A stretch of DNA of 59,319 nucleotides, filler included, from Platydemus manokwari (taxonomy: Eukaryota), in assembly GCA_037951405.1 (NCBI GenBank). It is 5 parts of 5 records of this genome, joined end to end, with 100 filler letters (N's around TTAATTAATTAA, not from the genome) between each part and the next. Parts side by side here need not be neighbours in the genome. Positions count along the whole stretch, not along the records: positions 10,557 to 26,321 come from JBBMOY011242540.1; 4 more parts are not named here. One strand, written 5' to 3'. The translations under genes and the position numbers were made by a program. Shown piece after piece: positions 22,861 to 26,321 of this stretch. Positions within the stretch are counted from its first letter, which is position 1. Each line of letters begins with the position of its first letter. The notes beneath the pieces are model-generated. The model ran no database searches. It was given only the letters and a program-made list of their open reading frames with translations, and was not told the DNA's origin.

Positions 22861-22974
22861 TTCTCATTATATTCAAGGCATTAAACTATTTAGACTTAAA
22901 CTAATTATGTTTATATTAAAAAATTCTAGTTTCATGAAGGGGGATATCAATTATAATCTAAGACCAGATTAAAA

Positions 22975-24553
22975 ATTAAATATATGTGATAAATGTTGTA
23001 GTTGTTTTGTAGATGAAAATAGTTTTGATAATCATCAAAAAATATGTGGATCTAAATAGGACGCTCATTTGATAATAAAAGAGTTAGCTGAAAAAGTTGA
23101 TGAAATAAAGATATTACCTTTAAGTGATGAATTTTAATATTTCATTTAATCATGTATGTATAAGATTCACAGATTCATTGAGGTTGCTTAAAAGCTCTTG
23201 ATAAGATGAGTGAATCAATGATAGATGATGTATATGTTGAGTTAAGAAAAGAGTTTGAAAGTAATTATATTAAAATGAAAGGGAAAGGAATTTATTCGTC
23301 TGATTGTGCAACTTACATTGAAATGTTCAATGAAACTTCTCTATCAAAAAATTAATGCTTTAATACTAGATTATATTAAAGTGGGATATTAAAAGATGAA
23401 TATCAAAGAGCTCAGGATGTTTGGAATAAATTTAACTGTAAAACATTATGGGATTATACAATTTCCTATTTAAACAAGATGAAAATATATTAGCTGATGA
23501 AATAGATAGTTTCAGAAATACATATATTAAACAAAGAAATCTTGAACCTGCTTACTATGTTTTTTCTCCATCTACCTGGGAATCTGGTTTGAAAGTTACG
23601 ACTATAAACTTTGAATTATTTACAGATCAAACAATGTATGAAATGTGTGTACAAGGAATTCAATGAGGAATTACATCAATAAAGGGTAAAAGATATGATA
23701 ATATAGAACATTATTATTATCCAAAAGAGCATGAATTTAAAAAGTAATAGAATGATTCGAACAAGATTCTTTGAACATGAATAAATGTTGGAAATTAATT
23801 ACTTGTCACGTTTTGATGATAATAATTTATATGGTTTGCTAATGAATGAAGCCACTACCTTTGGAAAATTTTAAATAGTTATGTAGTGAAACAATATTTT
23901 ATTATAATAATAATTTAGACGATTTTGTATCATTACAAAAACAATTACAGCGAGACTCAGTAAAAGGATTGATTTTATAATTTGATCTTGAGTATCAAGA
24001 TAATGAATTAACTAAAGATGTTCCATCAGCTCCTGAGAAAACGGTAGTTGATAGAAGTATTATGTATGGATAAAGAAAGTTACATAATAAATATTAAAAC
24101 AGATGACATTTATTAAGATATAAATAGTGATGAAATATTCGAAAATGAATTTGATTTCTCATAGTATAATAAAGATCATTAAATGTAGCACAATCAATTA
24201 ATGAGTAGTAAGGAAATTGGAAAATAAACTAAACGGACAGATATTAACAGAATTGATAGGTATAAGATTAAATTGTTATTGTTTTATTTAAGACTTATCT
24301 AGCTATATAAAATACAGAAATACTCTTATAAAGAACAGAGAAATTAAAAAAGAAGTAATCAAAATATGAATATGGATTTATTTAAAGAATGTTTATTCAA
24401 TAATCAAGATTACCCCAAGATATTACAAGAATCGGCTTTGATAAACATGTTATACAAGTATCAAAAACAAATAAATTAGCTCTAAATAATTTTGATGAAA
24501 AGAGATTTATTTGTGAGGATGGAACAGATACAGAACTATTCGGCTTTATTTAG
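22975..24553 (+). pseudogene. Protein-primed family-B DNA polymerase (Polinton/adintovirus type), disrupted and internally deleted
   Basis: Motifs in order across frameshifts: ICDKCCSCF...HQKIC (Zn finger); DAHLIIKELA (ExoII); RFTDSLRLLKSS; KGKGIY; EYQRAQDVWNKFNCKTL; KQDENILAD..LEPAYY; ELFTDQTMYEM..QGI; FDDNNLYG (motif A); MDKESYII.IKTDDIY (decayed YxDTDS); KLALNNFDEKRFICEDGTDTELFG* (typical C-terminus). Confidence 0.9.
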
Positions 24554-25068
24554 TCTGCTTCACTTAAACTGAAGTAATGATTACCTCCAATATTATTTGC
24601 TAATTTAAATAGTTCTACTTTAATCATTTTATATGAAAGTGAATTATAATCAATTTATTTATTTTTTAATGTTCTCCTTTGATATTAAAGATATTAAATT
24701 AATCCAGCTATTATATTTCTTCCTCGTTATTAAAATCAAATGATGGCACTGGAAGTACATGATTTAGTAGCTAATAAATACATTGATTCATCCATAACAT
24801 TTCATCTTTAAACTGAAATTTAATCCATATTTTTAATAATTCGACTGAACAACCTAGATATTCTTCTGTTGTTTCACATTTTGTTCTTGTTAAAAATTTT
24901 CTTATATGATTTGAAATATTTTTTCTATATTTATAATTTGAATTTTTTTATATTTATACCTTATATTGGTTTACATCTTGATGATTAGCAATCTTAATAT
25001 TGATTTCGTCCATTATAAAATTCATTCATATTTTTCACACATAAACAATTTTGACATTCTCGATCCAT
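24550..25068 (-). pseudogene. HNH-family endonuclease of the large-DNA-virus/Polinton type, disrupted
   Basis: ATG at 25068: MDRECQNCLCVKNMNEFY (CxxC Zn module), then EEYLGCSVELLKIWIKFQFKDEMLW...LNHVLPVPSFDFNNEEE...WINLISLISKENIKK, matching the LGC...W...DHxxP..FD...WxNLxPL...N pattern. Confidence 0.75.
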
Positions 25069-25099
25069 TTTTTTAAAATTAAAATTCATGTATTCATTT

Positions 25100-25610
25100 T
25101 CTTAAACTTTGCGATATTCCCCCTTTAACATGTTCACCTTTAGCTTCTTTTTGTACTTTATTTTCTAATTTTACATCATTATTTTTCATTTTTAAAACTT
25201 CTTCTCTAAATATCTTTAATAAATTATTTAGCTTTTAAAATTTCTTCAAGAAAATTTATCGATCTCATGCCTAATTATTTCACGAACTTCTTTATAAATT
25301 TTCTCTTTCTTACTACTTAATTCAATATGAAAGATTCTCCAATGATGCTATTTATTATTGGAAATAAACTAGTTTCTCACTACAGTATAAATTAATTACA
25401 AGAAAAATTTCATTTCCAGAAAGTGCTGATAAAATAGTTGAAATAAATCCCAATATCTCACCAGATATTAAAATCTAATTTTTTAAACCACTATCAAATT
25501 TAGTCCATTTATTTATTTTAATTTATTACTATGTCCCAAAAATTCCTCTAAAACTCTTTTCTCATTCATAAAATTCTCAATTCTAAGTTTATTAATATAT
25601 TTTGATTATT
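25100..25610 (-). pseudogene. Polinton/adintovirus small 2-TM membrane protein ('gasderminX'-like), disrupted
   Basis: KLRIENFMNEKRVLEEFLGHSNKLK/NKWTKFDSGLK, then a hydrophobic hairpin (ILISGEILGFISTILSALSG...LFPIINSIIGESFI) and a basic helix (SSKKEKIYKEVREIIRHEIDK). Layout and context fit; call is from recalled family pattern only. Confidence 0.5.
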
Positions 25611-26321
25611 TTCACAACATAAATAAAATGGACTAGTCCTCACCAAAAGTTGATAATCGGAAGCACTTTCAATATTCAACATCGAAAAGTTCACTTCACT
25701 TTCTCTTCATTCATACCTTTCGTACTTTTATTTAATATGAAATTTAGTAATACTTCAAATCAGCATAATATTCTTAAGAAAAATCATTGATTTCTTGTAG
25801 TTCTTGATCAATTAAAGATCTATAAATCATTATAAAATTCATAAGATTACTTTTTGTTGGTCTATTAAGAAATATATTCCCACTAAATGAATAAATTTTA
25901 TATAAAATATTTAATTCCTTTAGCAATATATTATTTAAATAAGTAGGAAACTTTATTTTGAGATTTTTTTATTAAATTCATAAATTAATAATCTCGGTTT
26001 TATAGACATAAAATCCATTTTTGGATATTTGTCAAAACATATATACTATGTTTCATATTTATTATCTAAGGAAACAGATCCATCTTTTGTTCCAATGCAA
26101 TTTCCTTTTACACCGAAATATTGAACAATAAATAGAATTTATTTATTTTCTTTATATGTGATGTAAGATATTTAAACGAATTATTCAATTTTTCTTCTAA
26201 TTGTCCTTCAAATCGAACACTCAATTTTTTCCTCATCATATTTATAAATTCTGCTTCCAATTTTTTCTTCTATGAGTTTCAAATGTTTAAATTAATTTTA
26301 TTTCTGCTTTATTAACTTATT

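Follow-up and report, generated by a model that had tools for sequence, protein, structure and literature searches.

Genes and features of the locus

The window, by which we mean the whole stretch of Platydemus manokwari DNA that was analysed (59,319 nucleotides in five joined stretches, filler included, from an assembly of 911 Mb in 1.99 million contigs), contains contig G000:C1242540 in full at positions 10557-26321. Towards the end of this contig lie the pieces of a PolB gene and, convergent with it, three tightly packed minus-strand genes, an arrangement that the original prediction had described and that homology to sibling copies bears out (Table 1). The element was previously said to start at 22930; it is indeed present there, but sibling DNA homology reaches slightly further left, to about 22900 (blastn, sibling starts 22900-22904). 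At the other end the element is cut at 26321 because the contig stops there. Exons of an SRCAP/SWR1 (Domino) helicase are found upstream on the same contig (window 10866-17540). At 0.50, the CpG observed/expected ratio of the PolB part (22900-24545) is lower than that of the host DNA on its flanks (0.97) and of the Gypsy remnant next to PolB (1.05).

No Pfam family was returned for any of the six frames scanned singly (X at stops); fragmentation hides the domains. Probes for capsid, ATPase, protease and Polinton integrase gave zero matches in window 21430-26321 (G000:C1242540:10874-15765, L001), and no long inverted repeat was seen within window 20500-26321, in line with the absence of these genes and of TIRs noted originally. 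Elsewhere in the window, by-eye labels were given to a pogo/Tigger-like transposase piece (40868-41176) and to a 340-aa multi-helix receptor-like ORF (42948-43970).

Table 1. Features at and beside the element, in window coordinates (aa, residues of the PolB relative P0007 unless otherwise stated).
Feature	Position	Strand	Content and evidence
Ty3/Gypsy integrase remnant, outside element	21847..22871	-	Abuts truncated PolB; siblings 81-84% identical
PolB piece 1	22900..23047	+	End of N-terminal region and C2H2-like zinc finger; aa 322-373; 5' part of gene missing
Deletion joint 1	23047..23051	.	ExoI and recombination endonuclease VII domain gone
PolB piece 2	23048..24049	+	ExoII, ExoIII, motif A; several frames with stops; aa 547-923, E 3e-49
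Deletion joint 2	24049..24052	.	Motif B region gone; aa 924-1106 unmatched
PolB piece 3	24051..24553	+	Decayed motif C, thumb, C-terminal KLAL..FD.KR, stop; aa 1107-1278, E 1e-9; six-frame translation
HNH/endonuclease VII-type gene, broken, free-standing	24550..25068	-	N-terminal Cys-rich part; stop overlaps PolB stop; ends from translation
Helical gene, broken, ~230-aa product	25100..25700 (ends approximate)	-	Central hydrophobic hairpin; P0001/P0002 matches at 25130-25596, E 1e-13 and 2e-21
Fibre-like gene, broken, 3' part	25740..26321	-	Sibling pieces; ~0.3-kb deletion at ~26140; cut by contig end

The intact natural relative P0007 (1290 aa) aligned in order at window 22850-24541 (tblastn, best E 3e-49), running as predicted from the zinc finger through ExoII, ExoIII and motif A to the decayed motif C and the C-terminus. 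In a control, the real sequence gave E 1e-48, compared to a best E of 16 over 100 codon-shuffles and 115 for the reversed sequence. The gene is broken into 11 frame pieces with 12 in-frame stops across them.

Comparison with siblings (a biased sample of 244 distinct non-self contigs, retrieved by homology) revealed two clean PolB deletions of ~0.5 kb each, at ~23048 and ~24051, that the original prediction lacked. At the first, P0007 aa 374-546 are missing and siblings are longer by 487-603 bp in 7 of 10 pairs; the endonuclease VII domain of this region (PF02945) is present in sibling ORF L025:606-1664. At the second, aa 924-1106 with motif B are missing and siblings are longer by 430-538 bp in 5 of 7 pairs. 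Run X1, which may be the source run, has one unitig spanning the first joint without differences and likewise a unitig across the second. From these alignments, we take both gaps to be deletions in the window copy relative to its siblings. Around the deletion at ~26140 in the fibre-like gene, siblings are longer by 209-385 bp in 13 of 13 pairs. With three internal deletions and the 5' PolB end gone, the copy is dead.

A search with a sibling PolB ORF brought up 6017 relatives from 7987 candidates, the closest being 52-54% identical; UniRef lists relatives under the name 'DNA-directed DNA polymerase'. A PolB tree of 49 rows was built from the window, 10 own-genome ORFs and 38 of the 120 listed proteins. 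In it, the window and five of the genome's own copies formed one clade (support 100/97) that was joined next by P0007-P0009 (100/99), apart from the coral-named rows. The model of a relative folded in place of the window's own sequence (P0016, 39% identical to P0007; pLDDT 80) matched phi29 polymerase at 2e-18 (next entry 3e-8) and, in BFVD, bird-sample 'densovirus', adintovirus and MELD PolBs; a PDB sequence search with a profile of 30 PolBs found nothing. We conclude that the window gene is a decayed PolB of the protein-primed type, priming itself being predicted from homology.

As to the convergent genes, an HNH sibling ORF (L222:965-1519) matched endonuclease VII (phrog_1035, 2e-13) and no Pfam family at E below 0.1, and 148 of the 150 scored HNH candidates match in the genome (G000). 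The helical gene has 6 database relatives and a weak pairwise match to its counterpart in the IMG/VR contig L443 (E 0.026); the model of a sibling ORF shows three long helices at a weak pLDDT of 62, with weak fold matches in BFVD to iridovirus and SLATT-annotated proteins. Presumably it belongs to the class that Starrett named GasderminX. The N-terminal piece of the fibre gene in sibling L095 matches phage tail-fibre PHROGs (4e-7).

PolB class and the PF03175 profile

Failure to match the PolB profile PF03175 had been named at the outset as evidence that would overturn the polymerase reading. The profile was matched by none of the six window frames, five sibling PolB ORFs, P0007-P0009 or the PolB of L443, and a PF03175 search of the whole genome recovered other PolB types, the window locus not being among the matches. 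That the window PolB misses the profile is thus correct, but this failure does not refute PolB because intact relatives (three from the databases and one from IMG/VR) miss it too. As described in the available part of Starrett et al. 2021 (PMC8502044), Beta adintoviruses are set apart by a PolB outside pfam03175, and the window PolB is likely Beta-type on this comparison. An Alpha adintovirus PolB is not indicated: no pfam03175-type PolB was found in window frames, sibling ORFs or intact relatives. PF03175 misses the whole PolB class to which the window family belongs, and Pfam-based screens therefore undercount such elements.

Other PolBs of the same assembly do match PF03175 (L063, L061), both PolB classes being present in it. 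L063 (G000:C1601075:4218-7442) is an open Alpha-type PolB of 1074 aa (PF03175 2e-31) near an ORF labelled cadherin-like by eye. We also noticed a 24-kb contig of 44-49% GC with open ORFs (G000:C444443:1-24255, L060-L062), which encodes a pPolB of 924 aa (PF03175 2e-18), a P-loop ATPase, an adenain (PF00770 7e-7), a BIR domain (1e-13), three paralogous ORFs of 454, 654 and 739 aa (25-34% identical) and ORFs of 621 and 801 aa. On this contig there was no rve among the 15 ORFs scanned, no integrase probe match and no terminal repeat; it has no DNA in common with other fetched loci and, in a single-protein scan, no IMG/VR relative. It is likely a free or prey-derived adeno-like/MELD virus and is, as a by-product, more surprising than the window element.

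Sibling copies and gene content of the family

The window PolB was matched in 53 of the 244 sibling contigs; 25 of the 53 also carry at least one accessory gene, in 24 cases in the same order and orientation, and the co-occurrence of PolB with its neighbours was thereby recovered in other copies. Overlapping sibling contigs, probed with open sibling ORFs, yielded a gene order with integrase and PLA2 on one strand and, on the other, (RING), ATPase, two unknown genes, capsid, a small hydrophobic gene, penton-like, adenain-like, fibre, helical gene and (HNH), meeting PolB. This chain was built from neighbours in L101, L173, L189, L199, L207, L213 and L491, overlapping fragments that may mix subfamilies.

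The capsid is a double-jelly-roll protein by its match to PF21738 (L139 ORF, 4e-17); a capsid probe from L082 matches the same ORFs as PF21738, and a PDB search by sequence gave nothing. It is linked to the fibre gene, the helical gene and PolB in L100, L173 and L189. An A32/FtsK ATPase (PF04665, 1e-7) lies upstream of the capsid in L203, L207, L211 and L213. PLA2 (PF08398) and the Polinton-type integrase, a piece of L213 that adjoins PLA2/ATPase (rve, 1e-4), were both below the cut-off; 150 of the 150 scored candidates for the integrase probe match in the genome. Capsid, ATPase and integrase each had 990-1435 first-look candidates, of which 147-150 were scored, with 150-161 matches. Penton and adenain-like protease pieces of the family had no Pfam match. 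The protease piece shows a pairwise match (2e-6) to an ORF of L346, itself without a Pfam match, and a His/Asp/Gln/Cys pattern and position recognised by eye. Both labels thus designate candidates, assigned from position, by-eye motifs and this pairwise match.

The search for intact elements that had been proposed was successful for capsid, ATPase and integrase, but not for a whole element, which was found on no single contig among those examined, nor for termini or 6-bp target-site duplications, of which none was seen in the siblings hunted. The DNA beyond the integrase in L479 matches, in inverted orientation, the DNA upstream of PolB in L524 (74% over ~745 bp) and in L516 (84% over 184 bp), a candidate inverted repeat on separate contigs that are possibly of a sister subfamily and reach no terminus.

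In five sibling genes the mismatch at third codon positions (0.25-0.31) exceeds that at second positions (0.11-0.17), and we therefore infer that the lineages diverged under selection. The pattern is flatter in several window pieces (e.g. 0.20/0.23/0.25), which together with the 12 stops argues that the window copy itself decayed neutrally.

Several copies depart from this scheme. PolB is in tandem rather than convergent in L081, L262 and L271, and it lies on the strand of the virion module in these three and in L198, L212 and L270, while a second, more distant PolB subfamily stands beside the same helical gene in L050 and L095; PolB inversion or exchange among copies is suggested. A RING-finger ORF (PF13920, 8e-6) is located between PLA2 and ATPase in L194, L195, L202 and L208. 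Other capsid, penton, ATPase and integrase genes of Maverick type (L125, L126, L120, L121, L122), with different GC and order, belong to further families or to prey elements.

Host attribution is indirect because the assembly holds COX1 of several animals. Seven COX1 loci examined out of 35 matches (L239-L246) comprise at least five distinct types, and in three of the seven AAA codes for Asn and ATA for Ile, as in flatworms and echinoderms (two of these three are broken and NUMT-like). The assembly is likely that of a flatworm predator together with DNA of its prey, although echinoderms too would fit the code taken by itself.

Origin of the copy and relation to known elements

Taken together, the ordered PolB homology, the accessory genes and the capsid, ATPase and integrase of the siblings uphold the original reading of a fossil Polinton/adintovirus: the stretch very probably holds one broken copy, with internal deletions, of an abundant Maverick/Polinton (adintovirus) family, with a PolB that is likely Beta-type and a host that is likely a flatworm. 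As Mavericks were already reported in planarians, the possibly undescribed lineage suggested originally would be new at the family level only, in keeping with closest database PolBs that are 52-54% identical.

By the established biology of Polintons, for which the parts of PMC8502044 and PMC11161782 available describe protein-primed replication, rve integration and probable virions, the active ancestor would have copied itself by protein-primed replication, inserted by means of its own rve integrase and probably packaged its DNA in double-jelly-roll particles. Purifying selection may have acted while several lineages diverged; these would have inserted hundreds of times or more before decaying. 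The window copy would have lost its 5' PolB end at the Gypsy junction and gained stops and frameshifts, so that it would make no working protein.

Could the window instead represent an amplified non-autonomous deletion derivative, whose deletions were inherited rather than acquired in private decay? Such an origin would suit its three clean deletions and the internal deletions that many siblings show, but all sibling pairs with a measurable gap (10, 7 and 13 at the three joints, only gaps above zero being listed) retain the missing DNA, the highest sibling identity over >150 bp is only 80%, and unitig depth along the window copy is 5-8. We consider this scenario improbable. That the element entered the assembly with prey or other foreign DNA, and is not the flatworm's own, seems still less probable: an ordinary invertebrate code was read in 4 of the 7 COX1 loci examined, yet the 15.8-kb contig on which the element lies also has intron-split SRCAP/SWR1 exons and the 26-28% GC of the window, and matches scored in the assembly number 150 or more per gene.

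The integrase at 21847-22871 raises the further question of whether it belongs to the element, which would then be a Gypsy-integrase Polinton chimera. Integrase and PolB abut head to head, and the same Gypsy family occurs near PolB in L035 and L068. However, the arrangement in L035 differs from that in the window, and the element family owns a Polinton-type integrase beside PLA2. Moreover, Gypsy siblings (L450, L451, L455, L457) carry RT and/or RNase H-like ORFs upstream of the integrase (by eye), and the Gypsy family is hyperabundant, with a summed unitig depth of up to ~50,000 along the remnant versus 5-17 for unique sequence (run X1); because of these two properties, the adjacency needs no special explanation. 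A chimera is thus barely credible, and we retain the reading of a decayed Maverick copy that lies next to an independent Gypsy remnant.

The window copy itself is an ordinary fossil, and its HNH cargo, a gene type that giant viruses and phages commonly carry, is the one less usual feature of the element. A flatworm-specific Maverick lineage might have acquired this HNH/EndoVII gene from one of the nucleocytoplasmic large DNA viruses, with selection maintaining it next to PolB in the role of a homing-type or helper-directed nuclease. In favour of such a capture, the best three Atlas clusters (score 0.96) have Nucleocytoviricota as the commonest taxon, 14 of the gene's best 80 IMG/VR loci are GVMAG-named (none of the 80 with a Polinton probe gene), its third-codon-position bias is like that of core genes, and it is present in 21 of the 61 contigs that hold the neighbouring gene. 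On the other hand, phage homologues occur among 32,645 clusters and are 30-42% identical in the 15 listed of 100 records, and 1 of 92 unrelated Polinton loci also carries an HNH. We regard the proposal as tentative and rather unlikely; if true, it would imply that flatworm cells were infected by Mavericks and a large DNA virus together. The patchy gene offers a small lead on gene flow between Mavericks and large DNA viruses.

Of the systems already described, the Beta adintoviruses of Starrett et al. 2021 (PMC8502044; Terrapene class, or group 1 of the Polintons when classed by PolB) resemble the window family in that their PolB lies outside pfam03175 and in having rve integrase, FtsK/A32 ATPase and a hexon; the family's candidate penton and adenain-like genes would be further points of likeness, and its small hydrophobic and helical accessory genes occupy the places expected of GasderminX and Cupiennin. 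Unlike them, the family also has PLA2 and a free-standing HNH, Terrapene proteins being compared by description only. PMC8502044 treats PLA2 as characteristic of Alpha virion modules, and a preprint (10.1101/2024.03.25.586562) reports mixed AB/BA pairings. 'HNH' has 0 occurrences in the text of PMC8502044 and in its searchable supplement (~4.0 million characters, figures excluded and the file possibly cut), and this supplement has 0 matches to four flatworm genus or group terms and Macrostomum.

Polintons/Mavericks reported in Schmidtea (PMC8532177) and a Polinton expansion reported in Dugesia (10.64898/2025.12.11.693146) likewise represent abundant repeats in low-GC flatworm genomes; the passages available from both give no gene maps, unlike what is presented here. 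Outside Repbase and subscription papers, we found in the literature no planarian Maverick described at gene level that carries a free-standing HNH. Going by the passages available, a gene map is thus added for a high-copy Maverick family of a likely flatworm, where such elements had been tallied as repeats, with no account of their individual genes.

Scanning IMG/VR with single proteins yielded no relative of the PolB piece, of the capsid or of the 24-kb contig's PolB; alignment scans did find relatives. Polinton-like contigs from IMG/VR and metagenomes (L437, L443, L346, L338) share the window PolB type (37-42% identical to P0009) and parts of the gene order: integrase-PLA2 (L437) or PLA2 (L443) is divergent from ATPase, L346 has penton-protease-fibre-helical gene-PolB, and in L338 HNH adjoins PolB. 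Their capsids match the assembly's other capsid type (L125), not that of the window family. In 92 external loci with this PolB type, mostly short, we counted integrase in 32, ATPase in 16, capsid in 6, PLA2 in 2 and HNH in 1. Finally, the available part of Jeong et al. (10.1101/2023.08.22.554363) places HNH as a domain inside pPolB2 in nematode and oomycete Polintons, which resemble the window family in a nuclease tied to a Polinton polymerase and in polymerase exchange between Polintons, and from which the window family differs in that its HNH is a separate convergent gene, besides the EndoVII domain inside PolB.
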